Shown piece by piece: positions 5,220 through 39,263 of a stretch of DNA of 64,000 nucleotides (positions within the stretch are counted from its first letter, which is position 1; every line of letters starts with the position of its first letter). The stretch comes from an uncultured Candidatus Micrarchaeota archaeon (GTDB lineage: Archaea > Micrarchaeota > Micrarchaeia > Anstonellales > Bilamarchaeaceae), in the NCBI GenBank assembly GCA_903835385.1, contig CAILMQ010000015.1, forward strand, positions 1,252-65,251. The letters run 5' to 3'. A program made the translations under genes and the position numbers. The notes beneath the pieces were generated by a model, which was not told the origin of the DNA, did no database searches, and worked only from the letters and a program-made list of their open reading frames with translations.

Positions 5220-8200
5220 CTAGGAGTACGCCAGGCACTGGTATGTTGAGGCTCCGATGTCAATGGAGCACGACTTATCCTTGCCCACGATTGCCACGAG
5301 CTGTGCCGGCACGGTGGTGAACACCTGCACCCTGGTGGTCTTGCTGCCCGGGGAAGTGCCGGTGCTGAGCTGCCATATCACACTGTCGGGATTGCACTGC
5401 TTTAGTTTGCCCGGCGGCCCGCACATCACGCGGTAATAGCCCCTGCCCCCCTCGTCGAATATGGTGCAGTAGTCCGAGCTGGGCCCTGGCCTGCACCCGG
5501 GGCAATCCGGAGGATTTGCCTGCGTGCCGACGTCTATCTGGGTGAAGTTGCACGGCGCAGGCCTCATGTCGAACGCGCACGCCCAGAGCGTCGTGCTTAT
5601 GTTGTCCGTGGTCGCGGTATACACCGTGTCCGGCCCCCTGTCCGGGTTTATGCTGCCAATCACCTGGAAGAGCGGGTCCGGGAAAGGGTCCCACAGCACT
5701 CCGCTGCACGCGACCGGGGTGCCGTTGATTGTACAGCTGGTGTTGAATGTCTGGTTGTCCCCCAAAGACAGGCTTGCGGCCGGGGGGTTTATGGCGAGCG
5801 TGTTGTTCGGCGGAACGACGGTCAGGTTGGACGCGCAGGACACGTTCCCTACCGTGGCGTTCAGCTTGCCCGTGGTGCCGATGTCCGATATGGGGACCAC
5901 GGACGCGCCCGTGGACCCGGTGTCGAATAGTATGCCCTCCATGCCCTGCAGCTCCCAGCTTGCGCTTACGCATGGCACGGTGTTGTTGGTGTTGTTGAAG
6001 CACACCAGGCCGAATGCCGCCACCTCGAGCCTGCCCACGCTGGCCTCTGGCGGCGTCACGTTGCAGCCCATCACTCCCGGCACAGGCTTGGCGCCTACGG
6101 TTATTGATGTGAAATTGCACGGCGTTGGCGCCATGCCGGACGCGCACGCCCAGAGTTCAGTGGCCGTGTTGTCCACGGTCGCGGTGTAGTTCGTCATCGG
6201 GCCCGTATCCGGGCTTATCTCCCCGTCAACTGCGGGAAAGTCCGTGGGATTCCACTGCACTCCGGCGCATGCGACACTGTTGCCGACATGCGTGCAGTTT
6301 GTGTTGAATATCTGGCCGCCCATGAACGGCAGGTCCACTGACGGCGGATTTACCGCGATTGTGTTGGTCGGCGGAACCACGGTCAGGTCGGACGAGCATG
6401 AGACCGGCCCTATGGCCGCGCTCAGCGTGCCAGTGGTGCCGATGCCGGATGTCGTGAATATTGATGCGCCTGTGGGCCCGGTGTCGAACAGCCTGGCGTC
6501 AATGCCCTGCAACTCCCAGTCCACGCTGCCGCACGGCAGGGGATTGCCTGAATCATCAAGGCACTCGAGGCTGAATGGTGTTATTTCGGAGTAGCCCACG
6601 CTGGCAGGCGACGGAGTTATGATGCAGCTCGACACGCCCTGCACGCTTACGGGCTGGCCGCTGTCCGAGTATGCGCAGGACGCCTTGAAATCGCCGGTCA
6701 CGTCCGCGCTCACGTCTCCGGTTCCGGGTGCCGGGAACGTCACGTCCGCGCTCGCGTAATCGTTGGCTCCCAGGGTGCCGAAGTCCGGCGGCGTGATTGC
6801 CCACGCGACGCTGGAACCCGTGCACGGGCCCAGGTCTCCCTTGAGATGGGCGCACTGGACGCTAAATGTCCTGGTTTCGCCGGGGTGCACCGGCATCGTG
6901 CCGTCGGTGATTGCGCACCTGTCGCCCGGGCCCACGTCAACCTGCACCGCGTCTATGTTGCAGGCCGATGCCTGCCTTGCTGCCACATTGCATGCAGGCT
7001 GGTCCGAACTGAAGGAGAATGCGAGCTTGGCGCTGTAGCTGCCTTCGGCCGTGCCCGCAGGAACCGCGACCTGAACGTACAGGGTCCTGCTGCCGCCAGG
7101 GTTGACGGCTCCGGACGGGCCGAAGCCGTTGGACGGCACCGAGGTGCACGACGGCGGGTTCTGGCAGCACTCGGGGTTCGTGGACGGCCTGTCGCCCCCG
7201 CTCTGTGCGCACAGCATGTTGTTGAACGCGGCTGCGGCCAGTGCCGGATTGTCGCTGGTGACGCCGGTGACGTAATTGGCCACCTGGCCGGTGTCGCTTA
7301 TGGTGACGGGTATGACTGTGTAGCTGCCGGCCTGCATGGACAGCGGCTGCGCCCCGGAGAGCCCGCAGGAAAGCGCGTTCTGGCGGTTCTCCACCACTAT
7401 GTTATACACGTTCGTGCCCAGGGCGGCGTCGTATGGCGGTGCGCCTGCGCCTGCCTGGGCTGAAATCCTGGAGTAGACCTCCTCTCCCTGGTATTTGCCG
7501 CATACGGGGTGCCTCACGGTTGCCGCGCAGCCCTTGACCTCATAGGAATCCTTTATGGCATAGCTGCCCAGGTTGCTGAGCGGAACGGTGTTGTGGAATG
7601 ATAAGCCGCTGTCCGAAGGGGAAAGGCCGGGATAGGAGCCCGAGGGCGTTGTCGCCGAGGGCGTTCTCGTGCCCCAGCAGGTCACGGCAACTGTTCCCAG
7701 CCTGTTCGTGATTTGGGTGCCATAATTGTCATAGACGTCTATCTTTTTGTCATTGAGCGCGCCCTCGTGGCCCCAGCACGTCGGGTTGTTGTAATTGCAT
7801 ATGCTCACGGAGCTGATTGCATCGTAGTCTGCCTTGTTCCAGGACACCGGGAAATTGCCCCCTGTCGCAGAGGAAGCCCCCGGGGTGCATGTTTCCCAGA
7901 CCTCGGCAAATGCGTAGAAGTTCGGCGCGGACCATGAGCCGCTCATGGACGAATCCAGCGATGCGGTCGCGCCGGGGCACAGCACCGCGCCGTCGAGCGA
8001 GCCTCCTGAGCCGTACGAGAGCACCTTGGAGTCGTCAATGGAAAGCGTGGACGTGAAGGCGCCGCTGAAACCGGGCTTCAGGTTTATGAACGCATAGCCT
8101 GACGTGGTGTATATCTCGTAAAGGGGAGTGGACTGGTCGTTCCAGGAAAGCGTTTTCTGCTGGCTGGCTGGCCACGCCGCTCCGGCAAGGAGCAAAAAAA

Positions 8201-8237
8201 CGAAGATGGTTAGCGCTCTGGCATGCATTGGAATCAT
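5220..8237 (-). CDS. large secreted Cys-rich surface protein with Ig-like (Big-type) repeats and many N-glycosylation sequons
   Basis: 1005 aa. Signal peptide MIPMHARALTIFVFLLLAGAAWPASQ. Many paired Cys. Two tandem 187-aa repeats (aa 538-724 and 725-911). Dense NxS/T sequons. The start overlaps the upstream gene stop by 4 nt. Confidence 0.7.
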   Translation of the reverse strand: MIPMHARALTIFVFLLLAGAAWPASQQKTLSWNDQSTPLYEIYTTSGYAFINLKPGFSGAFTSTLSIDDSKVLSYGSGGSLDGAVLCPGATASLDSSMSGSWSAPNFYAFAEVWETCTPGASSATGGNFPVSWNKADYDAISSVSICNYNNPTCWGHEGALNDKKIDVYDNYGTQITNRLGTVAVTCWGTRTPSATTPSGSYPGLSPSDSGLSFHNTVPLSNLGSYAIKDSYEVKGCAATVRHPVCGKYQGEEVYSRISAQAGAGAPPYDAALGTNVYNIVVENRQNALSCGLSGAQPLSMQAGSYTVIPVTISDTGQVANYVTGVTSDNPALAAAAFNNMLCAQSGGDRPSTNPECCQNPPSCTSVPSNGFGPSGAVNPGGSRTLYVQVAVPAGTAEGSYSAKLAFSFSSDQPACNVAARQASACNIDAVQVDVGPGDRCAITDGTMPVHPGETRTFSVQCAHLKGDLGPCTGSSVAWAITPPDFGTLGANDYASADVTFPAPGTGDVSADVTGDFKASCAYSDSGQPVSVQGVSSCIITPSPASVGYSEITPFSLECLDDSGNPLPCGSVDWELQGIDARLFDTGPTGASIFTTSGIGTTGTLSAAIGPVSCSSDLTVVPPTNTIAVNPPSVDLPFMGGQIFNTNCTHVGNSVACAGVQWNPTDFPAVDGEISPDTGPMTNYTATVDNTATELWACASGMAPTPCNFTSITVGAKPVPGVMGCNVTPPEASVGRLEVAAFGLVCFNNTNNTVPCVSASWELQGMEGILFDTGSTGASVVPISDIGTTGKLNATVGNVSCASNLTVVPPNNTLAINPPAASLSLGDNQTFNTSCTINGTPVACSGVLWDPFPDPLFQVIGSINPDRGPDTVYTATTDNISTTLWACAFDMRPAPCNFTQIDVGTQANPPDCPGCRPGPSSDYCTIFDEGGRGYYRVMCGPPGKLKQCNPDSVIWQLSTGTSPGSKTTRVQVFTTVPAQLVAIVGKDKSCSIDIGASTYQCLAYS
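5505..6626 (-). repeat. intragenic tandem duplication, 2 x 561 nt (187-aa module)
   Basis: Module 1 (6066-6626) begins CIITPSPASVGYSEITPFSLECLDDSGNPLPCGSVDWELQG. Module 2 (5505-6065) begins CNVTPPEASVGRLEVAAFGLVCFNNTNNTVPCVSASWELQG. They are colinear to ...LWACA..PCNFT..I.VG. Confidence 0.8.
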
Positions 8238-10228
8238 CTCTCCTTCTTGTATATTCCCCTGTGCACGAAGTCCGAGACGTCGACATTGAATATCACCAGG
8301 ACGTTCCCCGGGCCGGTGAACGGAATGCCGGATATGGTCGCCGCCTTGCGGTAGCGCACTTCGGTCCCCATTCTGATGCCGAATAGCTTGACATCAGCGC
8401 CCCCTCCTATCGTGGATTCGGTTTTGACTCCCAGCGGAGTCGGCTCCCCTCCGGAACTCTGCACGTAGTAGAACTTCATGGGGAATGACTCGCCCTTGGC
8501 AGTGCTCGGGGTTATCCCGACTCCGGCGCGCCAGACGAGGTCTGCCAGTGGCTGCGGATAATCAGGGCTGCCTTTCTTGAATTCGCCGCCTATGTCCGCC
8601 ACTATCATGACCGGCCCCAGGCCTTTCAGGCGGCCGATACCCAGGCCGCCGGCGCCTGTGAGCGAGAACGAATTGCTGGGGGTCAGGAAGGAGCCCCTGA
8701 GCGCGTAGTAGAGCGGAAGTTTCAGGTATCCCGCGGTCCTGCCGCTCGCATCCACAAAGGACGCCTCTATGAGCGCCTGCGTCTTGCCCATGTTCATGAG
8801 CCGCGCCTGCCCGGTCGAGTCCCCGCTTTCCACCACGTCGTACTGCGACAGTGCGCCGATGTCGAGCTGAAGCGTCGCGTAGTCCCACGGATGATATTTG
8901 CCTGTGGCTCCGAGGCGGGCCGCCATCTGCTTGCCGGTGTAGCCGGTCGGCTTCATTATCAGGGTGTATATGGTATTTCCATTGGCGTCGGTGCCCGGTT
9001 TCAACTCGGGCTGGTACTGCTGCGACGTGACATGCGACACCCAGGCATGCGGCCCGAGCGTGAGCTTTGCGTTTTTGAAGCGGAACAGCTCCAGGTCCCC
9101 CCCCATGGTAAGCACGGAAATGGGTATGCTTGTTATCATCTGCGGGCATATTTTCCTGACGCCGTCCAGGATGGCGGATTTCAGAACCGACCCGTCGGGC
9201 ATCAGGTTCATGGCTTCGAGATAATTGCCCCTGCGGATTTGGTTCATGACGTCAACGACCTGCTGCCTGCCGCCCTGGCCGCTCGTATCAGTGGCGATGA
9301 GCTGTGTCACCAGGTTCCAGCGGGGATCGGTGGCATTGGTGGCATTGAGGTCGCCGCTTTGCCCAGTGGTCGTATTCAGCCAGTTCATGATGACAGCATA
9401 GTATGTGGTGCCTGCCGTGCTGTTCCTGTTTGGCGCGAAGTAACCGAGGAACATGTCCTTGCTGGCATTGCTCATTGTCGCCACGTCGTTAGGCCCGAAC
9501 ATCCTGGGAAGCACGATGGTCGGGGTTATGTCCGGAGCCTTGGGAGCCGTGCCCACCAGGCGGAATTCCCTCGGAAGGAGGTTTATCTCGGTACGCAGGG
9601 TCTTCGCACTTGCGCTTTTGGAGGATACTTCCTTTTCGACAGCCCCTTCGGCGTGGGCGCTGCTTATTTCGACTTCCACTTCATCCCCTTTGTCCGGAAC
9701 CGGGGTTTTCTCTGCAATCGGCTTCAGCTCGGGCTCGGGTTTTTCCGCAGCCTGCGGTTTCGGAATCACCAATGGCGTGCTGTTCACGAACGAGAGTTCG
9801 GTTGCGGTCAGCCTGCGGCTTATGTCTTTGGCGGCCTTGGTTTTTTTGAGTGCGTCCCCGAATTGGTCGTAGAGCTTCTGTATCTCGAGCAGGTAGAGGA
9901 GCGGCGCCTTGGCGAACGTCTTCAGCGTGCCCATCGCCTCCTGTATCTCCTTGATTTCCGAGACGTCCACCGTGACGTATCCTTTCGGAGCACTTAGCAG
10001 GTAAAGGTCCAGGTGCTGGCTCGGGCTGAGCTTGTCGTATATTCCCCGCTCCGTTGCATCGAATTGCCTCTTCTGCTTGAGCGTCAGGTTCGTTGTGGCG
10101 AGGCGCGCGAGCACCGCGTTTATGTCGCCGAGGTTTTTCACCGGGTCGGCGGAAAGCCTGGTCAGCTCTGCCAGGTCCTTGTTCACATTGCTTACACTAC
10201 CGGCCTTAGCGACGGTTGTTGATCCCAT
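8234..10228 (-). CDS. hypothetical 664-aa protein: helical N-terminus, acidic/Pro linker, beta-rich C-terminal half
   Basis: Long ORF with AGGTGA SD 6 nt upstream of the ATG. No signal peptide or TM seen. The C-terminus shows alternating hydrophobic beta-strand patterns (GADVKLFGIRMGTEVRYRKAATISGIPF...VLVIFNVDVSDF). No family recognised. Confidence 0.65.
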   Translation of the reverse strand: MGSTTVAKAGSVSNVNKDLAELTRLSADPVKNLGDINAVLARLATTNLTLKQKRQFDATERGIYDKLSPSQHLDLYLLSAPKGYVTVDVSEIKEIQEAMGTLKTFAKAPLLYLLEIQKLYDQFGDALKKTKAAKDISRRLTATELSFVNSTPLVIPKPQAAEKPEPELKPIAEKTPVPDKGDEVEVEISSAHAEGAVEKEVSSKSASAKTLRTEINLLPREFRLVGTAPKAPDITPTIVLPRMFGPNDVATMSNASKDMFLGYFAPNRNSTAGTTYYAVIMNWLNTTTGQSGDLNATNATDPRWNLVTQLIATDTSGQGGRQQVVDVMNQIRRGNYLEAMNLMPDGSVLKSAILDGVRKICPQMITSIPISVLTMGGDLELFRFKNAKLTLGPHAWVSHVTSQQYQPELKPGTDANGNTIYTLIMKPTGYTGKQMAARLGATGKYHPWDYATLQLDIGALSQYDVVESGDSTGQARLMNMGKTQALIEASFVDASGRTAGYLKLPLYYALRGSFLTPSNSFSLTGAGGLGIGRLKGLGPVMIVADIGGEFKKGSPDYPQPLADLVWRAGVGITPSTAKGESFPMKFYYVQSSGGEPTPLGVKTESTIGGGADVKLFGIRMGTEVRYRKAATISGIPFTGPGNVLVIFNVDVSDFVHRGIYKKER

Positions 10229-10394
10229 ATATAGTCACCTTTTAGAGAGTGAAAGCTACTGGAACGAGCGCGCTGACTAGCGGCGCCCTGGTATTGCCGA
10301 ATACCGTCGCTGGTGTCGAAAGGCTTGCAAACAACGCAGTTGCTGCCATCGCTTTCGCGGTTTTTTCTCTCCATCCCATTCATATCACCATGCA

Positions 10395-13300
10395 TCATTT
10401 CATTTTGAGTTTCCTGTGCTCGTACTCGTTCATGTACACGCCGGGCGGCCTGTCGTGCCCCCCGTTCGTAAGCTGCCTGGAGAAACTGTAGGAGGTCTGG
10501 TCCGGCCCGAGCTTTTTCGCCAGCTCGTCGCCGTCAAGGCGCACCCGGAACGCGTCCCGCAGCCATGGCACGCTGACTTCCGTGAAATGGAACTTGAATT
10601 CCGGCGCGTCTGTTTTCGGGTTCGGAACCACTTCGTAGACGTGCTCGAACACGAATCTCCTTATTCCTTTCTTTTCGAGTTCCGCGTCCGACGTCCTGGA
10701 AGCTGGGCCGTAGTCGTTCCATCCGGATTGCGCGTCAATGAATCCGACGAGCGCGCTCCTCTTATAGTCCCATTTCACATAGAAATACGCGGCCCTGCTG
10801 CTGTCGTCGCTGAGCCTCGCGATGGCCTTGACGCCGTGGGCCGTCTCGTTGTTGGACATCGCATAATAGCAGTGCACGGGGGACTTCATGTCTTCCTCGT
10901 ACGCCATGTAGGAGAACATCTTGCCTTTGAAAAGCGGCGCAAGCGGCGTCTTCGCGGACCATGACAGTACTGCGAACCTCTTGTCCTGGTTTTCGTAGTT
11001 GGGCCTGTCCATGGCGATTGAATACGCCACCTCGCTGGCCTCTGTTGGCTTCGGCACGGGCGGCACCACCGCCGGCTTCGCCGCCTTGTCCGCATCCTGA
11101 AGGTCCCGGACCGCAGTGGTGAGCAGCTGTATCGCCCTCACCGGGTTGGCCCACGCGCCGTCCACGGAACCGCTGCTAAGGTCTGCGGGCGTGTTGCGCC
11201 TGTAAACCGCGGCAAGGCCTCCCTTGCCGTCCTCTCCCATCACCAGCTTGTACTTGGCCCATGCGCGCTCGTGGAGAAGCCTGACCACGGGGTCGGTTTT
11301 CTCCGCCTCCACTATGCGCGCGGTGGCTCCGGACCCGTCCTGTTTCCTCTTCACCGTGTCCCATGCTGACGCGAGCTGGGACAGGACGTCGAGCAATGCT
11401 TCGTTGCCTGCTTCGACCGGCACGGCGTACTGCGCCTTGAGCGACGCCGGGGAAACCCTCAGCTGCCTCATGTCTATATTGGCGTATGCTTTTGCAACTG
11501 CGGCCTCGGCACGGACGACCGGCTTGAGATTGAGCTCCGGGAACGCGTATCCCTGCCTCTTGAGACCGGCCACGAACGGGGCCCAGACATCTTCGATGTA
11601 CGGCAGCATGCCCCTTGAAAGGTCGTCTATGGCTGCCGTGTCCGCATTCCTGCGGTAGCGCTGCTCTGTGCGCTTGAGCCCCTGCGGAACGGAATCGTCC
11701 ATGAGCTGGAGGGCCGCGGACCTGCCGGATTTGTCAGAAATCGAATCCAGCCAGGGGAAAAAGAGCGGCTTCCTTGCGCCCAGCGCTGCGACCAGTACGC
11801 TCTCCTTGTCGCGCAGGGACCCGTAAACGTCACTCACGTAGTCCTTCCTCTGCGCCGCAGAAATGTCTTGCCTGACGGTGCCGAGGAATACGATGTGTTC
11901 CCATCCAAGGAACGAGTTCTCCATGTTTATCATTGAGTGCGGATATACCGTCACAAGCGATTCCAGCGTGATGTCCGTCATGGTGGCGGAGTGGGCGTCC
12001 AGGTGGTCGGGATTGCCGAATGCGAGCCTGAACAGTTTCATCTCCGCCTCATAGGCGGCCTTCGCGTTCTGGAACTGGGGCGTGCCTTCCACGCCGGGCA
12101 CGAGCTTTGATGCCTTTTCGAGCGCGCTCTCTTTCTCCTGAAGGGCGAGCATGTGCGCGACACCGGCTTCCAGCGCCTCGCTGAGGCGGAACATCTCGTC
12201 CGGCGTGGTTCCCTTGGCCTGCGAAGCGCTCTTGCAGCGCTCTATGAGCTTGGCCACGGTGTCAAGAATCGGGCCCTTTTTCGCATTCCTCACCGCGTCC
12301 TCGGCATAGCCTATGAACTCGTCCAGGTCCTCCCTGGCAACCACCGGGGGGTCTTTTGTGAGGTTAGGGCTGGTGTTGGAGTGGTGTTCCCACCTGGCTT
12401 TGAGGAGGAACCGCGTCACCCTCGGGTCGATGACCTCGCCCGCCGCGGCGTTCTTCTCGAGTATGTGTTCGAGCGCCATCATGGCGTTCTTGCGCGCGTC
12501 TTCGGGTTTCTTTGTGGAGAGCAGGCTCGCCAGGTAGTAATTCAGCTCCTTCACTGCGGCAGCGTAGACTTTCTTGTCCCCGTGATTGCGCTTGTATTCC
12601 TCGGCCGCCGCCCTCGCCTCGGTGAGCGCCTGGAGCGCGCTCGCCCAGCTCTCGAGCCTTACCACGGCCATGCCTGGCACGGTCGTGCCTGGCGCACGGG
12701 CGTTGTTGGCCTCGTCCACGAGCTGCCGTATCGCCGTGACGCTGTCCCTCTTCAAATCGTATTTCTTGGCCTTGCTCGTTTTTTTGCCGTGAACGTTATC
12801 CTTATACCTGAGCGTGTATGAGCCTGTGAAATAAGACGCACTGATGCCGTCTATGACCTGTTCGCCTATGGCGCTGGCAAGGGCCCGCTGCTGTTCCGTA
12901 ATGCCCTCCTGGTAGGATGCGAACCTGGCGGACCGGTCGGCACTGGCCGCGGTTTCGGACTCTTCACTTCCGATTGTTTGGAGCCTCGGCACTGCCGATA
13001 GTTTTTTTCCGGTTTCCGCCCCGGCAGCTTCCCTTTTCGCTGCGGCCCTGGCGTCTTCAATTGACGCCGAAAGGACCCCGGCCCTGCGCCGTGCCGCTTC
13101 CACCTGCGCTTCCCTGTCATTGGCTGCGATTGCAGCTTTTGCCGGTGCTGAGGGCCTGGCAGCAGCTTCGTACTCTTTCTCCGATGCAGCGAGATCGCTC
13201 TCGAGCTTGGCAACCTGTGCTCTCGGTGAAGCGCCCAAAATCTCACCCTTAAGGACACGGTTGGCGGTCCCGAACACGCTCACGAAGCGCGCCGTGGGGC

Positions 13301-13526
13301 TGCCGCCCTTTGCGATACCGAGCTGTGCCAGGACGACGGTAAGTTCCACCACCTGCGGCATGTTCGGGGTTATCCCCTGGAGCCCTTTGGGAATGCTGGA
13401 ATCCATGGTAGAAAGAAGCGTTTTTATGCCGGCCCATTGTTCCTGCGCCATTTTTACGAGTGCGAGTTTTCCAGCCGCCTCTGCTTCCCCATCTGTTTTT
13501 GCCTGAGCAAATGCCTGTCTAGCCAC
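10395..13526 (-). CDS. hypothetical giant mostly alpha-helical protein (about 1044 aa; ORF open to 13721 = 1108 aa)
   Basis: Uninterrupted ORF 10395..13721. I favour the GTG at 13526, preceded by GAGGTG with a 6-nt spacer and a TATA-like ATTTATAAG at 13569-13577. Ala/Glu/Lys-rich helical body. Distinct beta-rich C-terminal ~230 aa after a Pro-rich linker. No family recognised. Confidence 0.65.
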   Translation of the reverse strand: MARQAFAQAKTDGEAEAAGKLALVKMAQEQWAGIKTLLSTMDSSIPKGLQGITPNMPQVVELTVVLAQLGIAKGGSPTARFVSVFGTANRVLKGEILGASPRAQVAKLESDLAASEKEYEAAARPSAPAKAAIAANDREAQVEAARRRAGVLSASIEDARAAAKREAAGAETGKKLSAVPRLQTIGSEESETAASADRSARFASYQEGITEQQRALASAIGEQVIDGISASYFTGSYTLRYKDNVHGKKTSKAKKYDLKRDSVTAIRQLVDEANNARAPGTTVPGMAVVRLESWASALQALTEARAAAEEYKRNHGDKKVYAAAVKELNYYLASLLSTKKPEDARKNAMMALEHILEKNAAAGEVIDPRVTRFLLKARWEHHSNTSPNLTKDPPVVAREDLDEFIGYAEDAVRNAKKGPILDTVAKLIERCKSASQAKGTTPDEMFRLSEALEAGVAHMLALQEKESALEKASKLVPGVEGTPQFQNAKAAYEAEMKLFRLAFGNPDHLDAHSATMTDITLESLVTVYPHSMINMENSFLGWEHIVFLGTVRQDISAAQRKDYVSDVYGSLRDKESVLVAALGARKPLFFPWLDSISDKSGRSAALQLMDDSVPQGLKRTEQRYRRNADTAAIDDLSRGMLPYIEDVWAPFVAGLKRQGYAFPELNLKPVVRAEAAVAKAYANIDMRQLRVSPASLKAQYAVPVEAGNEALLDVLSQLASAWDTVKRKQDGSGATARIVEAEKTDPVVRLLHERAWAKYKLVMGEDGKGGLAAVYRRNTPADLSSGSVDGAWANPVRAIQLLTTAVRDLQDADKAAKPAVVPPVPKPTEASEVAYSIAMDRPNYENQDKRFAVLSWSAKTPLAPLFKGKMFSYMAYEEDMKSPVHCYYAMSNNETAHGVKAIARLSDDSSRAAYFYVKWDYKRSALVGFIDAQSGWNDYGPASRTSDAELEKKGIRRFVFEHVYEVVPNPKTDAPEFKFHFTEVSVPWLRDAFRVRLDGDELAKKLGPDQTSYSFSRQLTNGGHDRPPGVYMNEYEHRKLKMK

Positions 13527-13568
13527 AGAGAACACCTCGTTTCTATTCTTTGTATTACCCCGACAACC

Positions 13569-13577
13569 CTTATAAAT
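13569..13577 (-). promoter_or_regulatory. candidate TATA box for the three-gene ORFan operon
   Basis: Minus strand ATTTATAAG, about 45 nt upstream of the proposed GTG start and about 25 nt upstream of the SD-containing leader. Confidence 0.35.
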
Positions 13578-13825
13578 CTGCTCAGGGAGGGGCAGGGTGC
13601 AGAAAAGCGCCACAGTGACAACCAACTGCCTAAACGTATGCCTGGGCCTGCCAGTCTTCCGGTACGGACTGCCCAAAGTAATGCTCCCTGCCTCTCCCAT
13701 TATTACACCACGATATTCCATTTATAACGAATATTTTAAAAAGGTGCTGCCGAATACACTAATGTAGAATAAGGATAACTTTAGGAATAAGTGTTTATAA
13801 ACGGATATCCCGCGGCGCCCTGCGC

Positions 13826-14129: not shown

Positions 14130-14314
14130 GCAGGGGTGGCGGAGTTTTATCCATTCGTGGATAGACCGTAACGGCCAAACGCGTCAGGTTCAGGTGGCTT
14201 TTTGCTCCTCGTTATCCGAGGGCAAAAACCCAGGAAAAAGGTCCTGAGTTCTTCTCGGGCCTTCCGAAGCCTGATGGCTTAGTGCCTTCAGGAGTTCAAA
14301 TCTCCTCCCCTGCA
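14130..14314 (+). tRNA. tRNA-Leu(CAG), interrupted by about 100 nt of intervening sequence (D-loop insert and long anticodon-loop intron)
   Basis: Acceptor GCAGGGG/CCCCTGC plus A73. T-arm AGGAG-TTCAAAT-CTCCT. D-arm GCG...GGCCAAA-CGC split by a ~27-nt insert containing hairpin TATCCA-TTCG-TGGATA. Anticodon stem TCAGG/CCTGA with loop TTCAGG. Long variable arm TGGCTTAGTGCCTTC. Followed by CTTTTT. Confidence 0.75.
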
Positions 14315-14458
14315 CTTTTTCTCCTCCGCCAGTACGAAGCCAGTACGAAGATTTACATACCTATCACACGCTAATTAGCCCCAAGATAGCCTAGCTGTTT
14401 TGAGCCGGGCCGTCTTTTAAGGCGCAAAAAGCGCCTGGAAAAAAAATAGGTGAAATGA

Positions 14459-20802: not shown

Positions 20803-21545
20803 GTGTTCGACATCTCCGAAAACATAGTACCGAAGCACATCGCCATCATCCCGGACGGAAAGAAGGCCTTTCAAATTTTTTAAGAAAGACTAAAACCGCA
20901 AACCGGAGATGGGCGCAGAAAAGGGGCATCAGCACCCAGGAGGGCTATGCCATCGGCATCCAGAAGATAGGCGACGTCCTCAAATGGTGCAAGGAAAAGG
21001 ACGTCCACATGCTCACTATGTGGGGCTTTTCCACCGACAACTTCAAGCGTGACAAGAACGAGATAGAGGATCTCTTCGGGCTCTTCAAGGAGAACCTGAA
21101 GAAGGGTCTCGATTCCGATGAAAAAAACAAATACGAGGTGCGCGTGCGGTTCTTCGGCAGGACACACCTGTTCCCGGGCGAAATCCAGCAGATGATAAGG
21201 AAGGTGGAGGAGATAAGCGCCAAAAACTCCGCCTACCAGCTGAACCTCCTGCTTTCCTACGGCGGAAGGGAGGAGCTGGTGGATGCCGTAAATGCCATGC
21301 TGAAGGAGGGGCTAAGGGAGGTGGACGAGAAGACGATATCGGATCATCTTTATACCGCGGGCGTTCCGGACCCGGACATGGTGATACGGACCTCGGGCGA
21401 GCAGAGGCTTTCCGGCCTGATGCCCTGGCAGTGCACATATTCGGAGTTCTACTTCTGCGACAAGCTATGGCCGGATTTCTCCAAGGACGATTTCACGGAC
21501 GCGTTGGACACGTTCAACAAGAGGAAAAGGAGATTCGGGAAATAG
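20803..21545 (+). CDS. uppS: undecaprenyl/di-trans,poly-cis-prenyl diphosphate synthase, coding sequence interrupted by a 41-nt insert (exon 1 about 20803-20860, exon 2 20902-21545)
   Basis: Frame 1 encodes (GTG)FDISENIVPKHIAIIPDG up to 20859/60. Frame 0 resumes with NRRWAQKRG... at 20902. Joining them restores the canonical HIAIIPDGNRRWA motif. The rest aligns along its length with UppS (GFSTDNF, RFFG, YGGR, IRTSGEQRLSG, RRFG). Confidence 0.8.
20861..20901 (+). other. candidate BHB (bulge-helix-bulge) intron within uppS mRNA
   Basis: Exon-exon outer helix 20843-20854/20903-20912. Central helix ACGG(20855-58)/CCGC(20896-99). Two AAA bulges (20859-61 and 20900-02). Cutting after the second bulge nucleotide on each strand removes exactly 41 nt and yields GAC GGA AAC CGG. 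Confidence 0.65.
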
Positions 21546-22223: not shown

Positions 22224-22895
22224 TCATGAACACGAAGTTTTTATAATAGATTCCATCTTGAGGCGCTTTCTTGGGTGTGAAGACCCGATGACGTTCAACC
22301 AATGCCGCACCATCTTATTTCCATGAATGGCAATCTTGAACGTATTTGTGTTGGATTTGCGAAATGTCGTCTTAAAACCTTCGGCGTCCAGAATTTTTCT
22401 GATGGACAAAAGCAGTTCCAAATTTTCATTTGTTATCTCTATCGTTGGGTAGTCATTTACTCCTTTTTTGTCACTGGTAAAAACCGAACCATCCGTATCG
22501 AAAATACCTCGAATGAAACGCAATCGTAAATTCCGAGATTCTACTACCTTGGATGGAATAACGCCGCAGCTTTTCTCACCACCGATGCCAAAACCAAGAT
22601 ACTTGGTCAAGAAAAGAAATAGCGCCTTTGAGTAAATTGACAATCTGAGACCCCGCCCTCTGACCCGGTAGTACACCGTTGGTTTAATGGCGCGCGTAGC
22701 ATAATCGGCGATAAAATCCATATACCCTTTGTCGTTCGGGTTGCCAGTTATCGTAATTTCATACTTGCGATTATTGGTCCAGAGGTTTCCGTCGCCCATC
22801 AAAACCCCGCAAAATTCTGCCATTTCATTATCTAAAATAAATCCGTTTCCAGAGCAAACCATAAGATTTTCAGTGCAAGGGCGGTTTATAAGCAA
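22224..22895 (-). CDS. LAGLIDADG-family homing endonuclease (double-motif, free-standing)
   Basis: 223 aa. Motif 1 FCGVLMGDGNL, motif 2 FIRGIFDTDGSV. The segment is visibly AT-rich (~40% GC) against ~60% flanks. Confidence 0.85.
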   Translation of the reverse strand: MLINRPCTENLMVCSGNGFILDNEMAEFCGVLMGDGNLWTNNRKYEITITGNPNDKGYMDFIADYATRAIKPTVYYRVRGRGLRLSIYSKALFLFLTKYLGFGIGGEKSCGVIPSKVVESRNLRLRFIRGIFDTDGSVFTSDKKGVNDYPTIEITNENLELLLSIRKILDAEGFKTTFRKSNTNTFKIAIHGNKMVRHWLNVIGSSHPRKRLKMESIIKTSCS

Positions 22896-22932: not shown

Positions 22933-23153
22933 GGTGAGGGGCATAGTCTGCCTTCTGTGTCCCGGAAACCGGGGCGGCATTATACTAAGCACCGGAAAAC
23001 CGGCTTGCTCCGTCATCAGGAGGGAAACGCTCGTTTCATCCCTTGCGGGTATCGTTTCTGTACCGCTTCCCAGGCCCTTAAAGCCTGTGCCCCCTCGCGG
23101 AGGGCAGAACTTCCTCACTTCCTTGCGGAAGCGTGAGCCGCCTGCCCCTCACC
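22933..23153 (-). ncRNA. rnpB: RNase P RNA candidate (compact, about 221 nt)
   Basis: Minus strand. P1 GGTGAGGGGCA/TGCCCCTCACC. P2 GGCGGC/GCCGCC. P3 hairpin TCACGCTTCC-GCAA-GGAAGTGA. CR-I-like GAGGAAGTTCTGCC pairs with the CR-V-like ACAGAAGGCAGACTA to form a P4 with a bulged U. Internal GNRA hairpins. No ORF. Confidence 0.65.
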
Positions 23154-25184: not shown

Positions 25185-28100
25185 TCATGGGAATATCCAT
25201 GCTGCGACCTGCTGCTGGCAGTTGAACTGCTCTGCGGCGCACATTTCGCCCGGATAGCCCATCTCGCTGTTTATGACGACGTAGTTCTGGTCGTTCCACA
25301 CCGGCACCTGCGTGTCTATGCCGGCATAGGTCATGGAGCGCGGGGATTCGCTGCCGCTCACGTGCGGGCCGCCGTTCTCGGACCAGATTATGTTTCCGTC
25401 TCCGTCGTGTATCTCCACTCCGCTGACCTGCATCGCGGTCCTGCCGTTGGCGGCGATCGCGGTCATGTCCTGGGCAAGGCTCTCTCCGTCGCTGTCGCTG
25501 ACCGCGTTCACTATGGCCGGGCCCGGCGTTATCGTGTATTTGAGGGATTTTATCGTGCGGTCGGCCTGGGTGTATTTCAGCTCGTAGTCCACCCTGTATA
25601 TGCCATACCACACATCAGCCTGCGGGCCGGCTGCCCAGGGCGAGTGGTAATGGTGGCTGATATAGTACTCGGTGCCGGTCTTCGTGCTCATGGGCGGCGC
25701 GTCCGTGACAGCCACCTGGGTGGTTCCCGTTCCGGATACCGCCCCGCTGTCATCCCTGACTACCAGCGATACCGCATAGGTGCCTGCCCTGGAATAGGTG
25801 TGTTCAATTGGCCAGAACCCTTCCCCTGGCGACGAGGAGCCGTCTCCGAAAGTCCAGTCCGCGGACACCACGCTTCCGTCAGGGTCATAGGAGCCGGACG
25901 GATCGAACGACACCGGCTGGTTTGTGTATGCGGTGTACGGGCCCCCTGGATTGGAATATGGCGGCTGGTTCGGCTGGACAAACACCGGGCGGGACGTGGA
26001 CGCGCTGCCACCCAGGAAATCAGTGACATTCAATGTCACGGCATAGGTGCCTGAAGAGGCATAGCTGTGCGAAACCTCGTGGCCGTAGTCCACGTCGCTG
26101 CCATCGCCATAATCCCACCTGCACGCATAGTAGTAGCTGCCCGGGAAATCAGGATCCGTGGAGTTCTCGCAATTGAACGTTATCCATTCGTTCTTTAGCA
26201 CGTTTATCGTCTGGTCCCCGCTGCTTTGGGGCTGCTCAGCGTCTATGGCCGGTAGGGGCGGCTGGTTGGCAACAAGCGAAATGGATGTTGCATCCTCGTT
26301 GTTATCCCTGTTGGCCTCGGTAACCGTGCCCGCAGGGTCCGCTATGGCGCGGACTTCGTGCGTGCCTGGGTTGATCTGGCTGGTCATCGGGAAGCGGTAT
26401 TCCACGCTCGCGCTGGCGCCTGCTGCTATTGAAGGTATTGTCTGCTCCTTGCCCATGTCGCCATCCCTCAGCACGCGCACGAGCACGTTCTGCGCCTTGT
26501 CATTGCCGCCGTTGTGAACCGTCACCGTGAACGGAACCGAGTAGGCATAAGATGAGGAGTCGGGTATCACGGCGCTATCCCTGCCGGAAATTGAAACTTC
26601 CAGGTCGGGAAGCTTCGCATTCAGCGGAAGCGTGCCCCGGTTGTTCCCGAAGTCGGATTCGTATATGGACTTGCCCGGGTTGGCGAAGGCCACGACCACC
26701 GGGTTGGCTGATATGCCCGAGGGCACAGTCCATTGCATGCTCACCGTGCTTTTCGAACCGCTATTGATGGTCACGGTCTTGGTGCCTATGGGCTGCTCTG
26801 AGCCGTCCTGCCCGATATAATAGAATTCTATGGGTATGTTGGCAGCCTTTGCTGAGCCGATGTTGCTCACATTCGCCTTGATGGTAACGTTGTTCCCGAC
26901 CGCCACGCTTCCTGAAACCGATATGTCATTGCCGGACACCTCCAGGTCAGGGAGCAGTATCTTTATCTCGCTTGATGCGTTGTTGTTCCCGTATTCCTTC
27001 TCTCCCACCTTCCTGTCGCTGTTCACGTCCACCAGGAAGTTCGCAGTGCTTATCTTGGACGGGACTGTCCACTCGTAGCTCACCCTGGAACTTGCGTGCG
27101 CAGCAAGGTTGGTTGCGAGCACCGTGCCCACGGGCACAAAGGAGCCGCCGTCTATGGAGACGGAGTAGCGGACAGTGGCATTCTTGACCTTGAGCGTGCC
27201 GAGATTCTTGACCGTGGCCCAGACCTTGAGCTTGTCGCCTGGCACCGGGCCCTTGGGGGAAAAGGTTATGCTGCTCTCGTTTATGGAAAGGTCGGGGTAG
27301 AGCAGGTCCACCGTCATCTGGTGGGTGGCGAGGTTGTTGGATTCGCTTGTTTCCGCGATTGCGTTGTCAGGGTCTGCTGTGACCGAGACAAGGAGTGTTT
27401 CAGTGTCCGCAGGAATGGCATAGGTCGCTTTCGCGGTCTTTGAAGAGCCCGGGCTTATGGGGCCGATTGTGACATCTGCTATCGTCTCGCCGCTCACAGA
27501 GACCTCGCGCTCTTTCTGCTCCAGATTCATGCCGTCTATCAGGCCTGCGATTATCTGGTTGTGCATGCTGTTGGCATCGAACTTTCGCTCCTCCTTATCG
27601 CCGGTCTGGTCCTTTTCATCCTCGTAGTTTTGTATCGCGTCCACTTTCTGGAAGCGGATTTTCGCGCTCTGCACAGTGGAGGTGCCGTTGTTCTTTATGG
27701 TGGCGGTGATGGAAACCGTGCTGCCTGTCTTCAGGTTCGAAGGCGAATGGGTTATGCCCGAATCGGTGACCACCAGGTCCGGAAGCGTTGCGGATTCGGA
27801 TATGGTGTACGAAGCGGCATTGTTCGTCTCGTCGGATTCCGTGATGGTGTTGTTCGGGTCCACGGTTATGGCATAGGTTCCGCTTGCTGTTGGAAGGCTC
27901 ACGGTGGCATAGCCGCGAGAGCCCGCGGATATGGAAGATATCTTGGAATAAAGCGTGCTGCCCGCCCCTTCGGCCTTTACCCATACGTTCGTCGCCTTGG
28001 CAGTGCCCTTGTTGCCGACATATATCTTGAGCGTTGCTTTCATCTGCCCGCCGGCCTCTTTCAACGTGTGCGTGATGCCCGAATCCGTGATTGCCAGGTC

Positions 28101-28775
28101 TGGCATGGGCTGGGCGGCATACGTTATGCTCGTCTGGGCGGCGTTGTTGGTCTCATCGCTTTCGCGGATGGAGTTCATGGCATCCACTGTCGCTGAAACC
28201 GTGTATGCGCCTGTTGAGAACGGCGCAGGGCAGCTGACAAAAACATAGGACGAGCTGCCGGCACTTATGCCCGCTATGGTTTTTGCCTGGGTGCTGGCGT
28301 CTGCGCAAACCACTGAGACGGTGATGTTCGATGCTTTTGCAGTGCCGTTGTTCTTCACTTTCACTTTGATGGTGGCGTTGTTAGCGAGCTGCGGCGATAC
28401 TGGGGTGGAGGACAACTCATATATGTACAGGTCCGGAAAGGTTTCGGCTGTGGTGAAAGTATAATTATCTGAATCGAAATAGGATGACGAATTCACCTTG
28501 CACCTGAGCTTGTAATAGTATTGGGTGTCCGGTGAGAGGCTGGAGAGCTTCACACCGTGCGAGAGCGATTTGGTGGAATTCGTGGCTGTGGACCCGTAGG
28601 AAGAAGTCTTGCCATGGAAAACCTGGGCAGAGCAATTTGTGGCCGTGCTCCATGTGATGTATGCCGCTGATGCGCCGGCATTCACGCTGACATCGTTGAA
28701 CTCAGCCGCGAACGAGGCTGCTGCGAGCAGAACCAGAACCGTGATGATGAATATTGGTTTTGTCATTGCAATCAC
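25185..28775 (-). CDS. giant surface protein with FN3-like N-terminus, about 9 CARDB-type repeats and two PKD domains
   Basis: 1196 aa. Signal peptide MIAMTKPIFIITVLVLLAAASFA. Recurrent PDL.V...V.N.G...A CARDB units. PKD signatures WDYGDGS...HSYASSGTYAVTLNVTD and WTFGDGS...HTYSRAGTYAVSLVVRD. Confidence 0.8.
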   Translation of the reverse strand: MIAMTKPIFIITVLVLLAAASFAAEFNDVSVNAGASAAYITWSTATNCSAQVFHGKTSSYGSTATNSTKSLSHGVKLSSLSPDTQYYYKLRCKVNSSSYFDSDNYTFTTAETFPDLYIYELSSTPVSPQLANNATIKVKVKNNGTAKASNITVSVVCADASTQAKTIAGISAGSSSYVFVSCPAPFSTGAYTVSATVDAMNSIRESDETNNAAQTSITYAAQPMPDLAITDSGITHTLKEAGGQMKATLKIYVGNKGTAKATNVWVKAEGAGSTLYSKISSISAGSRGYATVSLPTASGTYAITVDPNNTITESDETNNAASYTISESATLPDLVVTDSGITHSPSNLKTGSTVSITATIKNNGTSTVQSAKIRFQKVDAIQNYEDEKDQTGDKEERKFDANSMHNQIIAGLIDGMNLEQKEREVSVSGETIADVTIGPISPGSSKTAKATYAIPADTETLLVSVTADPDNAIAETSESNNLATHQMTVDLLYPDLSINESSITFSPKGPVPGDKLKVWATVKNLGTLKVKNATVRYSVSIDGGSFVPVGTVLATNLAAHASSRVSYEWTVPSKISTANFLVDVNSDRKVGEKEYGNNNASSEIKILLPDLEVSGNDISVSGSVAVGNNVTIKANVSNIGSAKAANIPIEFYYIGQDGSEQPIGTKTVTINSGSKSTVSMQWTVPSGISANPVVVAFANPGKSIYESDFGNNRGTLPLNAKLPDLEVSISGRDSAVIPDSSSYAYSVPFTVTVHNGGNDKAQNVLVRVLRDGDMGKEQTIPSIAAGASASVEYRFPMTSQINPGTHEVRAIADPAGTVTEANRDNNEDATSISLVANQPPLPAIDAEQPQSSGDQTINVLKNEWITFNCENSTDPDFPGSYYYACRWDYGDGSDVDYGHEVSHSYASSGTYAVTLNVTDFLGGSASTSRPVFVQPNQPPYSNPGGPYTAYTNQPVSFDPSGSYDPDGSVVSADWTFGDGSSSPGEGFWPIEHTYSRAGTYAVSLVVRDDSGAVSGTGTTQVAVTDAPPMSTKTGTEYYISHHYHSPWAAGPQADVWYGIYRVDYELKYTQADRTIKSLKYTITPGPAIVNAVSDSDGESLAQDMTAIAANGRTAMQVSGVEIHDGDGNIIWSENGGPHVSGSESPRSMTYAGIDTQVPVWNDQNYVVINSEMGYPGEMCAAEQFNCQQQVAAWIFP

Positions 28776-29329
28776 CCCATTACCGCTCCCGTGGCAGCAT
28801 CAACTTTGCACACATCCTGGCCGGCTATCACGGTCCAGACGGGAACTCCGCTCTCCATCTCAAGCGTGCACTGGCCACCGTGGCCGCACGCTTTTGTCGC
28901 CACTGCGCTGTCCTGCCACTGGGCCGGAAGCAGGCGCCGGGCCTGGTATTGGACGTTCCGCGCGTTCAGTTCGGGATCCGGCACCGTAACCGCGTAACCT
29001 GTCATGGCGGCAACCGAATTGAAATAGTACTGCCATTGCCCAGCAGTGCCGTCCTGGGCGCAATCGCCATAAATTGAAACGAGCTTGGAATCCTGCACGA
29101 GCTTCACGGCCGCCGCGGTCGCATTTGCGACTCCGTCCCGGGCTGCGAACGGGGTGGCTGGCGCTTCAATAACGTTGCCAGGGCCCGGCGGTGTTGCTCC
29201 CGGGTTGGCGGTCAGGTTCTCCTGAATCGTTATGTTGGCGCCGCTTTGCGGCACGGAGGGCCCGGTGCATCCCATTACCGCAAGCAGCATCATCCCCAGC
29301 AAAAATAAGGCAATTTCCCGCATAATCAT
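28772..29329 (-). CDS. hypothetical secreted or lipobox protein co-transcribed with the CARDB/PKD giant
   Basis: From Met MIMREIALFLLGMMLLAVMGC (lipobox-like). 4-nt ATGA overlap with the downstream gene. Confidence 0.5.
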   Translation of the reverse strand: MIMREIALFLLGMMLLAVMGCTGPSVPQSGANITIQENLTANPGATPPGPGNVIEAPATPFAARDGVANATAAAVKLVQDSKLVSIYGDCAQDGTAGQWQYYFNSVAAMTGYAVTVPDPELNARNVQYQARRLLPAQWQDSAVATKACGHGGQCTLEMESGVPVWTVIAGQDVCKVDAATGAVMG

Positions 29330-29455
29330 CAGAACTGAGTGTATGTACAAGTTTTTTAAACCTTTTTCGTGAAAATGGTGTTTAGTCAAATTTTCCAGTT
29401 CAGGCGGAAGGAAAGACGGATTCTGCTAAAACGAATGGATTTGTGAGGTGGAATA

Positions 29456-37729: not shown

Positions 37730-37889
37730 CCCGGTCTGCCTATCGCCTGACTTCCAACCACCCGTGCGCCATTTTTACACCTCCTGCTATCGCGGTTTCT
37801 ACGTGGGCTTCTGCATCAAAACTTTATAAACCGGCGTAACAAAAATTAATTTTCACTTTCATTTTTATTCTCTTTCCCTTATCCTACCC

Positions 37890-39263
37890 TTGATGTGCTA
37901 CGCGATTCCGGGACGAATTGTTTCCATTCAAGGCAGGACCGCCACCATAGACTATTTCGGCGAGAGGAGGGAAGCTGGCATAATTGAAACCGGAAACTGG
38001 GCACTGAAAACAGGAAACTACGTCTATGCGCAGGGCGGAATCGTAGTGGACAGGATTGCGGAATCCGACGCGCTCGCGATTCTCGAATCGTGGAAGGGGC
38101 GTTTTTTTGAATTGAAGAAAAGGGATGCCGGGATTGCTGAAACAGCAAAAACAAAAAAAATAAAGAATAATGGCTCGCTCGCGTCCGTTCTTGACAAGGC
38201 GGAATCCGGCGCTTTGCTCACGAGAAGGGACATGGAGACCGTAATTACTGCGGAGAAGCCGTCTCTCGAGCCTCTTTATGCGTCTGCGAACCGCGTCCGC
38301 TCGCGCGAGCTCGGCAATTCCTGCTGCGTGCACGGCATAATAGAGTTTTCAAACAACTGCAAGAACGGGTGCGCGTACTGCGGAATAAACAAAAACAACA
38401 CGAAACTCGCCCGCTATCGCATGGGCGCGGATGAGATAGTGGAGCGGGCGGAATATGCGGTGAAGGAGCTCGGGTTCCGCGCACTCGTATTGCAGTCAGG
38501 CGAGGATGACTACTACAGCGACGACGTTCTCGTTGATATTGTGAAGCGGATTCGCGAACAATGCGGCATCCTCATTTTCATGTCAATAGGGGAGCGCCCG
38601 TTTGAGTGCTATAAAAAACTATACGGGGCGGGCGCGTATGGCGCGCTTCTGAGGTTCGAGACGTCAAACCCGAAAATATATTCCATGGTGCGGCCGGGAA
38701 AGCGGCTGGAGGAACGCCTCGCCCTAATCAGGAAGCTGATTGCAGCCGGTTTCGTGGTGGCAACCGGCTTCCTCGTCGGGCTTCCGGGAGCCACGGAGCA
38801 GGACCTGATAAACGACATACTGCTCACCAAGTCCCTCAGGCCGGACATGTACTCGTTCGGACCGCTCATTCCGCATCCGCGGACCCTGCTCGCAGGAACG
38901 AAACCAATCGCCCCCGATTACGCGCTCAGGGCAATTGCGCTTTCGCGTTTCATTGACCCGAAAGCCAAAATCCTTGCAACCACTGCGCTTGAAACGCTCA
39001 ACAAGGGAAAAAAGGACGGGCTGCTCGCAGGGGCGAACTCGCTCATGATAAACCTGACTCCTGATAAGTACAAGCGGGATTATGATTTGTATCCGGGCAA
39101 GACAAAAGGCACGGGACTCGGGACACGAAACCCGAAACCAGGCACACAGGACACCGGACCTGGCACGCAGGATGAAATCCGCGAAACCCTCGGCCTCCTG
39201 TACTCTCTCGGCAGGGCGCCCACTGACATAGGGAAAATGGATGGTAACCATGTATTCGCATGA
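37890..39263 (+). CDS. hydE: HypC/HupF-like domain fused to a HydE-like radical SAM enzyme
   Basis: 457 aa. N-terminal ~75 aa MCYAIPGRIVSIQGRTATIDYFGERREAGI...GNYVYAQGGIVVDRIAESDA is HypC-like (MC.AIPG start). Then the CKNGCAYCGINKNNTKLARYRM radical-SAM CxxxCxxC in HydE/BioB-like context. Confidence 0.7.
   Translation: MMCYAIPGRIVSIQGRTATIDYFGERREAGIIETGNWALKTGNYVYAQGGIVVDRIAESDALAILESWKGRFFELKKRDAGIAETAKTKKIKNNGSLASVLDKAESGALLTRRDMETVITAEKPSLEPLYASANRVRSRELGNSCCVHGIIEFSNNCKNGCAYCGINKNNTKLARYRMGADEIVERAEYAVKELGFRALVLQSGEDDYYSDDVLVDIVKRIREQCGILIFMSIGERPFECYKKLYGAGAYGALLRFETSNPKIYSMVRPGKRLEERLALIRKLIAAGFVVATGFLVGLPGATEQDLINDILLTKSLRPDMYSFGPLIPHPRTLLAGTKPIAPDYALRAIALSRFIDPKAKILATTALETLNKGKKDGLLAGANSLMINLTPDKYKRDYDLYPGKTKGTGLGTRNPKPGTQDTGPGTQDEIRETLGLLYSLGRAPTDIGKMDGNHVFA

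Follow-up and report, generated by a model that had tools for sequence, protein, structure and literature searches.

The stretch analysed here, 64 kb of contig CAILMQ010000015.1 (referred to as the window), is archaeal, and its UppS homologues carry names of Micrarchaeota (DPANN). It contains one UppS-family cis-prenyltransferase gene, uppS, and the subject of this study is a 41-nucleotide (nt) insert that interrupts this gene. The uppS product is an essential lipid-carrier synthase. A purP-like gene lies upstream (stop codon at 20790-92). By direct reading, the first uppS frame runs from GTG 20803 through FDISENIVPKHIAIIPDG up to GGA 20857-59; it ends in ...ENIVPKHIAIIPDG, with GAC at 20854-56, and continues past GGA as KKAFQIF to a TAA stop codon. 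The second frame begins with AAC at 20901 and reads NRRWAQKRGIS... to the stop codon at 21543-45. The gap between the two frames (20860-20900) has a G+C content of 32%, compared to 57.7% for the window. The start codon is putatively GTG 20803, with TTG 20782 as an alternative; GTG is also found in two related loci (L003 and L005), and intron-less homologues starting with VF... (P0005) likewise begin with GTG.

Joining of GGA to AAC in silico gave a 233-residue protein with the junction GACGGAAACCGG, which matched the full Pfam profile PF01255 (Prenyltransf, positions 1-219 of 219, E = 8.9e-76). This protein aligned with solved UppS structures continuously over the junction (IIPDGNRRWA versus IIMDGNGRWA; for 7JLI, pkhiaiipdgnrrwaqkr versus PEHIAIIMDGNGRWAKKR). 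The catalytic residue of UppS is the Asp of the DGNRRW motif. The predicted junction sequence ...CATCATCCCGGACGGAAACCGGAGATGGGCG... is absent from the DNA. Excision of 20859-99, 20860-900, 20861-901, or 20862-902 led to the identical product. The sole uninterrupted open reading frame (ORF) starts at ATG 20799, comprises 248 amino acids and reads ...HPGRKEGLSNFLRKTKTANRRWA; it lacks Asp-Gly, and its PF01255 match begins at profile position 5. Gene callers give uppS either as a truncated gene (182-220 amino acids) or as this ORF in the wrong frame. Direct reading thus bore out the original prediction that the DGNRRWA motif is split by a 41-nt insert and that the ATG 20799 ORF is devoid of the catalytic Asp-Gly, and the N-terminal motif was covered without a break after splicing in silico.

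The 90% protein cluster of the window gene contained no member with the spliced sequence. One member on an ENA contig (P0125) is a variant of the uppS ORF with a frameshifted C-terminus (...RRKGDSGNRNRMRTYACALAGNRA) that runs into the downstream spacer, probably due to an assembly or strain indel.

The region 20835-20920 was folded with RNAfold without constraints, and 200 shuffles served as control. An exon-exon helix (h) was formed by 20847-54 with 20903-11 (8 bp, A20907 bulged), plus 20841-44 with 20912-15; the pairings are CCGG/CCGG, CAUC/GAUG, and CGCC/GGCG. In the central helix (H), CGG 20856-58 pairs with CCG 20896-98 and A20855 faces C20899. Two unpaired AAA bulges lie on opposite strands. 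Scored as a motif of the bulge-helix-bulge (BHB) type, the window reached 4/4 pairs in h and 3/4 in H, with both bulges of 3 nt. The inner helix h' next to the 5' bulge had 0/4 pairs in the window lineage, and an internal loop followed by a hairpin was found in its place. Due to the absence of h' beside the 5' bulge, the motif belongs to the relaxed hBH-type form rather than the strict hBHBh' form; relaxed hBH motifs are a recognised BHB subclass (PMC5829648).

In the crystal structure of ARMAN-2 EndA with RNA, the bulge consists of A13-U14-A15, with the scissile bond between 14 and 15, after the second bulged nucleotide (PMC12397907). Applied to the window, this rule places the predicted cuts behind 20860 and 20901. 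With AAA in both bulges, every symmetric cut would give the same product. The proposed cutting after the second bulge nucleotide agrees with this structure, and the unconstrained fold reproduced the exon-exon helix, H and the two AAA bulges. From the geometry predicted originally, H (three pairs plus A·C) and both AAA bulges were retained; the 10-bp register of h was replaced by a better one from RNAfold. The features are summarized in Table 1.

Table 1. Position of uppS segments, predicted BHB elements and RNA genes in the window
Feature	Position	Strand	Basis or remark
uppS exon 1	20803..20860	+	Putative GTG start, 19 codons to ...HIAIIPDG, plus first A of the Asn codon (BHB cut rule)
Candidate BHB intron, 41 nt	20861..20901	+	Predicted cuts after 20860 and 20901; holds the stop of the exon-1 frame
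uppS exon 2	20902..21545	+	AC of the Asn codon, followed by RRWAQKRG... up to and including the stop codon; PF01255 after splicing
TAA stop ending the exon-1 frame	20881..20883	+	Inside the candidate intron
Helix h, 5' strand, CGCC..CAUCCCGG	20841..20854	+	RNAfold, RNAalifold, pair counts
Helix h, 3' strand, CCGG.GAUGGGCG, A20907 bulged	20903..20915	+	RNAfold, RNAalifold, pair counts
Central helix H, exon strand ACGG	20855..20858	+	3/4 positions paired in the window
Central helix H, intron strand CCGC	20896..20899	+	RNAfold, pair counts
5' splice-site bulge AAA	20859..20861	+	Predicted cut after 20860
3' splice-site bulge AAA	20900..20902	+	Predicted cut after 20901
Intron hairpin AG..CUUUC / GAAAG.CU	20864..20891	+	RNAfold; purine-rich internal loop between hairpin and H
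tRNA-Phe(GAA), three introns	22213->22036	-	Comparison with relatives; missed by ARAGORN and Rfam
tRNA-Phe intron 1, 40 nt	22183-22144	-	Position 30/31
tRNA-Phe intron 2, 23 nt	22136-22114	-	Position 37/38
tRNA-Phe intron 3, 42 nt	22091-22050	-	Position 59/60
Archaeal RNase P RNA	22933-23153	-	Rfam

Inserts and exon constraint in orthologous uppS genes

A protein search with the spliced sequence revealed mostly uninterrupted Micrarchaeota orthologues of 225-240 residues (69-81% identity). Three protein clusters (P0001, P0032, and P0109) had aberrant N-termini that start exactly at NRRWA, and in the corresponding DNA (L001 and L002) an insert was located at this same bond. The comparative set consisted of 10 intron-bearing uppS loci from about six sequence-distinct lineages with 65-99% protein identity. 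In a protein-based scan of genome contigs, the matches listed were mostly bacterial and included at least three Micrarchaeota loci, one of them (L009) with an intron. A DNA-pattern scan of metagenomes gave 13 stretches, of which five were uppS introns (L091, L093, L094, L096, and L100, the last on the same contig as L007) and the other eight were chance matches in unrelated sequence.

All inserts in the 10 loci are located at the identical codon boundary, and their sequences are unrelated between families. The window and L003-L007 have 41 nt, L001 has 21 nt (AATTAGCAATTGCTAAACGTA, with an in-frame TAG), L091/L093 have 23 nt and L094/L096 have 26 nt (both from the metagenome scan). L002 has 35 nt, and a different 35-nt insert is present in L009, which belongs to the GTDB representative genome Ca. 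Micrarchaeota NC_groundwater_1742 (68% identity). The inserts of L003-L007, which derive from ENA, NCBI, Logan, and JGI samples and include contigs of 0.5 and 1.57 Mb, are homologous to that of the window with substitutions; one of these, A to G in L003/L005, replaces the C·A mismatch of the intron hairpin by C-G and results in an 8-bp stem. Insert lengths are 2 mod 3, except for the 21-nt insert with its TAG, and the exon-1 frame stops 1-7 codons beyond the junction in 10/10 loci. Both exons were open and of full length in all of them. The amino acids of exon 1 are conserved with variable synonymous sites, and exon 1 is under purifying selection. The read-through ORF is not conserved, with its ATG missing in 5/10 loci.

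The same layout of h, H, two A-rich 3-nt bulges, and an intron hairpin was obtained in 10/10 unconstrained minimum-energy folds. Thus, one fold is kept while about six unrelated introns vary in sequence and length (21-41 nt). The fold of L002 is a near-canonical hBHBh' motif with 4/4 pairs in H, and L009 is close to it, also with 4/4 pairs. The helix h' was present or nearly so in L001, L091/93, L094/96, L002, and L009. The intron strand of H is ACGU, CCGU or UCGU in the orthologues; five loci with ACGU have three pairs plus G·A. The base facing the A of H is C in the window (a mismatch) and U in seven sequences, which gives an A-U pair. The question raised with the original prediction, whether related genomes carry an insert at this codon, was answered by divergent Micrarchaeota with unrelated inserts at the same boundary. 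We consider this comparative evidence the decisive part; it lends the observation a significance that the single-sequence fold gives only to a modest degree.

The exon bases of h and H, CCGGACGGA before and AACCGGAGATGG after the junction (the string is also given as CCGGACGGA and AACCGGAGAUGG), were identical in 4/4 intron-bearing lineages from the protein search. As these four were found by protein similarity, they are unbiased as to DNA sequence. The full string occurred in 0/6 intron-less Micrarchaeota neighbours (L008 at 91% identity, L102-L105, and L015; Fisher exact p ~0.005), which have CCC or CCA for Pro, CGC or AGG for Arg, ATA or ATT for Ile, and GGC or AAT at the junction. The junction Arg codon stays CGG, a codon otherwise rare in the AT-rich intron-bearing genes: elsewhere it accounts for 0/13 Arg codons in L001, 0/11 in L002, 1/14 in L009, and 0/17 in L091. 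With an alignment of the 10 sequences forced into this structure, 94.4% of cells were paired, compared to 24-35% in slid controls; for helix h alone the value was 99% (RNAalifold, pair counts). The outermost pair, 20841-20915, which joins the third position of an Ile codon to that of an Ala codon, covaries (C-G, A-U, and U-A).

The nearest relatives outside each intron family are intron-less genes (L001 and P0031, 87% identity; L094 and P0102, 82%; L002 and P0108, 81%; the window and P0122, 91%), and the distribution of the intron is therefore patchy. Its origin would be either an old intron with many precise losses or repeated gain at one site. The introns of L001 and L091/93 have AAUUAGCA...UGCUAAACGUA in common, which favours common descent, at least locally.

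Interpretation of the insert and alternative explanations

Based on sequence, fold, restored frame, and the conservation and covariation across orthologues, the 41-nt insert is very probably a genuine BHB pre-mRNA intron. We infer EndA cleavage, ligation and translation of the spliced mRNA in the following manner. On the transcript, h would arise by pairing between exon-1 codons 13-18 and the opening codons of exon 2, and H by pairing of ACGG, the four bases at the end of exon 1, with the four intron bases that directly precede the 3' bulge. Together, both helices would present the two AAA bulges on opposite strands, four positions apart. Archaeal EndA would cut behind the second A of both bulges, and an RtcB-type ligase would link ...GACGGAA to ACCGG.... 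Ligation would restore P-D-G-N-R-R-W-A, so that the catalytic Asp and the remainder of the enzyme share one reading frame. The unspliced mRNA would yield only a peptide of ~26 residues or the read-through product without the Asp.

Several observations weigh against an intron. The fold of the window (-21.3 kcal/mol, z = -2.0, with 4/200 shuffles equally stable) was modestly better than the shuffles, by ~2 standard deviations, and on its own seems suggestive, not compelling. The 5' splice site of the window is relaxed without an adjoining helix and H contains the A·C mismatch; hence, a broad-specificity endonuclease would be needed. Neither EndA nor RtcB was found in the 64 kb, as searched by Pfam in the 58 longest non-overlapping ORFs and via the loci of annotated relatives for the two genes upstream of uppS. 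In vitro, the epsilon2 EndA from Ca. Micrarchaeum accepts strict as well as relaxed BHB motifs as substrates (PMC3239211). An EndA sequence of M. jannaschii matched PDB 1A79 and also found the ARMAN-2 enzyme 4FZ2. As the DNA pattern of the metagenome scan fixed 22 exon bases, exon invariance in the loci retrieved with it, four of which are among the ten (L091, L093, L094, and L096), is partly given by construction; the covarying pair 20841-20915 lies outside the pattern. In L001 (1600-1640), exon 1 extends only 11 codons past an in-frame TAG and has no ATG, GTG or TTG, so that a canonical start is missing after the preceding stop. Possible reasons are an error in sequencing, decay of this copy or the use of an unusual start codon. 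Finally, there is a kinetic difficulty. The intron is situated 19 codons from the start and its fold needs exon codons, so translation and BHB formation would compete. If a ribosome trailed the polymerase, it would unfold the motif and end translation at TAA 20881; splicing would have to be faster than translation, unless initiation is slow (GTG start).

Four other explanations were weighed. It is very unlikely that EndA cuts without productive rejoining, in which case the motif would be an mRNA-destabilising or regulatory cleavage element and not a true intron. Haloferax EndA does process BHB sites outside introns, in rRNA precursors and in an mRNA 5' untranslated region (PMC7714728). However, removal of the insert restores the frame and the invariant catalytic motif exactly in every lineage and for any insert length; with cleavage alone, active enzyme could not be made and the conservation of exon 1 would have no reason. 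Highly improbable, too, is a pseudogene, that is, uppS inactivated by a small palindromic mini-element with a duplicated AAA in a cell using another cis-prenyltransferase. Both exons are open and of full length under purifying selection in 10 loci, in lineages down to 65% identity, and other lesions are absent from the gene. The inserts sit at the identical phosphodiester bond, yet are unlike in sequence and length, and synonymous sites in the exons are constrained to pair, with one pair covarying. Features that would fit a pseudogene are the AT-richness of the insert, its hairpin or palindrome and the AAA on both sides, together with the treatment of uppS as truncated by gene callers. No second Prenyltransf match was detected among the annotated ORFs of the window, to whose 64 kb the search for another copy was confined.

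The structured gap between two coding segments might also point to translational recoding, with ribosomes that bypass the 41 nt by hopping (phage T4 gene 60 is an example) or that shift frame on the unspliced mRNA, and cbf5 introns were initially confused with frameshifting (PMC2738675). We consider this extremely improbable. A shift of ±1 does not span 41 nt. For the take-off codon GGA 20857-59, which precedes AAG and not a stop, a matching landing codon in frame is missing. GGA recurs downstream only at 20905-07, in another frame, and landing there loses N-R-R-W. Across the loci, the gaps are unrelated, of 21-41 nt, and no stop or stem is conserved at a fixed distance; the conserved feature is the BHB, not a bypass signal. 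The probability of an assembly or sequencing artefact, which the original prediction had named as a ground for rejection, is vanishingly small even if the window was probably assembled from a metagenome. The same ORF or variants of a few residues occur on several NCBI and ENA contigs, the homologous 41-nt insert recurs on five additional contigs (JGI, ENA, and Logan samples), and other lineages have their own inserts at the same site, so that independent assemblies contradict an artefact. Self-splicing group I or group II introns were rejected: inserts of 21-41 nt are far too short for a ribozyme core, which takes hundreds of nucleotides, and no Rfam match was obtained in the region at E <= 1.

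A more far-reaching version of the BHB intron is that it serves as a maintained functional switch by which EndA and RtcB gate the lipid-carrier synthase, similar to HAC1/XBP1. Its retention at a single codon boundary in deep Micrarchaeota lineages would result from selection for control or from repeated site-specific re-insertion of a mobile BHB intron. This seems unlikely; if true, further 'pseudogenes' of DPANN would be unrecognised spliced genes. In eukaryotes, HAC1/XBP1 contains a non-spliceosomal coding intron (26 nt in XBP1) that is cut by Ire1 at twin stem-loops, ligated by an RtcB-type ligase and regulated by stress, and its splicing changes the reading frame. The uppS intron is likewise short, non-spliceosomal and coding, and its removal changes the frame, whereas the cut is predicted to be made by EndA at a BHB.

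For the BHB intron in uppS, the closest precedent is cbf5. The cbf5 pre-mRNA BHB intron of Crenarchaeota was reportedly described by Watanabe in 2002. Crenarchaeal cbf5 introns measure 16-44 bp, disrupt the codon of a catalytic residue and are patchily distributed (Yokobori 2009, PMC2738675). In papers up to 2020, crenarchaeal cbf5 is the sole archaeal coding sequence with an endonuclease-type intron (PMC7714728), and a paper from 2025 cites only cbf5 work (PMC12397907). In the open-access text of reviews and structural papers up to 2025, no BHB intron in a coding region other than cbf5 was found, nor any literature pairing uppS or undecaprenyl with an archaeal intron. The earlier statement that coding BHB introns are confined to cbf5 hence holds in the open-access literature (PMC2738675, PMC7714728). 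Within this literature and on strong comparative evidence, the uppS intron would extend endonuclease-type pre-mRNA splicing to a second family of protein genes and, for the first time, to DPANN.

The uppS intron probably works like the cbf5 intron, yet stands outside the cbf5 set. Both are short BHB introns in coding sequence (16-44 nt in cbf5, 21-41 nt in uppS) with an often relaxed motif and a patchy distribution that implies gains or losses, and both are routinely mis-annotated as a frameshift or truncated gene. In contrast to cbf5, a pseudouridine synthase gene of TACK archaea cut by (alpha-beta)2 EndA, the host gene encodes a cis-prenyltransferase of DPANN Micrarchaeota, the endonuclease is probably of another class (epsilon2 in Micrarchaeum), the intron is close to the start, and splicing of uppS is predicted from sequence. 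The non-canonical tRNA introns of ARMAN-2 and Micrarchaeum (PMC3239211, PMC12397907) belong to the same phylum and share the hBHBh' and hBH classes as well as A-rich 3-nt bulges with the uppS intron, whose substrate is instead the coding region of an mRNA. As the helices of uppS are built from codons, protein and RNA-structure constraints overlap. Haloferax volcanii HVO_1309 also has a BHB intron in an mRNA, and EndA acts on it as predicted for uppS (PMC7714728); however, this intron lies in the 5' untranslated leader and leaves the frame uninterrupted, and the euryarchaeal host has an enzyme of strict specificity.

If the interpretation as an intron is correct, a second gene in another superphylum, and probably with another endonuclease architecture, would indicate that splicing of mRNAs by the tRNA machinery is more than a curiosity of Crenarchaeota. 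Furthermore, uppS would be a natural overlap of RNA-structure and coding constraints, visible as frozen and covarying synonymous sites, and the question of how splicing is reconciled with coupled transcription and translation would be sharpened. As uppS is mis-called, metabolic reconstructions of DPANN may wrongly score dolichol- or undecaprenyl-phosphate synthesis as defective.

tRNA introns and other features of the window

The RNA genes that ARAGORN and Rfam (gathering threshold and E <= 1) detected in the window were limited to tRNA-Val and RNase P RNA. Intron-bearing tRNAs were found by comparison with relatives and a search for acceptor stems and T-arms. Excision of the three tRNA-Phe introns in silico resulted in a canonical tRNA-Phe of 73 nt that was recognised by ARAGORN. 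The bulges of these introns are A-rich (AAA, AAU, and AAG), and one motif has only 2/4 central pairs. The tRNA-Phe of L003/L005 contains one 16-nt intron only. A stretch of 184-186 nt at 14130-14315 (+ strand) has an intact acceptor stem (GCAGGGG/CCCCUGC) and a T-arm; it is probably a class II tRNA-Leu(CAG) with two or three insertions (D-loop, anticodon loop, and variable region). Brute-force excision favoured Leu(CAG), with uncertain boundaries of the insertions. Consequently, of the two tRNAs for which non-canonical introns had been proposed, tRNA-Phe was reconstructed with confidence and the second is only probable. With non-canonically positioned tRNA introns and relaxed motifs, the organism presumably owns an endonuclease that handles both. 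The genome is rich in BHB introns, and they turn over quickly in this lineage.

Two BHB scanners, used to look for further mRNA introns that join ORFs in the window, gave noise only (8396 and 811 matches). The three best candidates, at ~10228-10255, 13712-13759, and 29391-29435 (minus strand) were unconvincing on inspection.

The RNase P RNA is only ~221 nt long, with two internal regions of the archaeal model reduced from 45 to 2 and from 36 to 5 positions. This shortened form is kept in relatives (L003 3726-3946 and L005 3689-3911). A free-standing LAGLIDADG_3 homing-endonuclease-like ORF (22224-22895, - strand) is located between RNase P RNA and tRNA-Phe, and neither RNA gene is interrupted by it. 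The spacer measures 719 nt in the window compared to 86 nt in L003, and the ORF is thus a recent insertion. An intron in the RNase P RNA, suspected from the adjacent LAGLIDADG ORF, was rejected: the RNA gene is complete, relatives have it at the same short length, and the ORF is confined to the spacer.

Among the remaining protein-coding regions, one stop-free frame at 37830-39260 (+ strand) contains HupF/HypC (residues 22-88) followed by Radical_SAM (171-328). This combination is unusual and could be a fusion or two genes sharing one frame. Three consecutive ORFs of 1057, 666, and 1108 codons from stop to stop (5223-13721, - strand) had no Pfam match at E <= 1e-5. A CARDB/PKD repeat protein of 1204 codons is encoded at 25188-28799.

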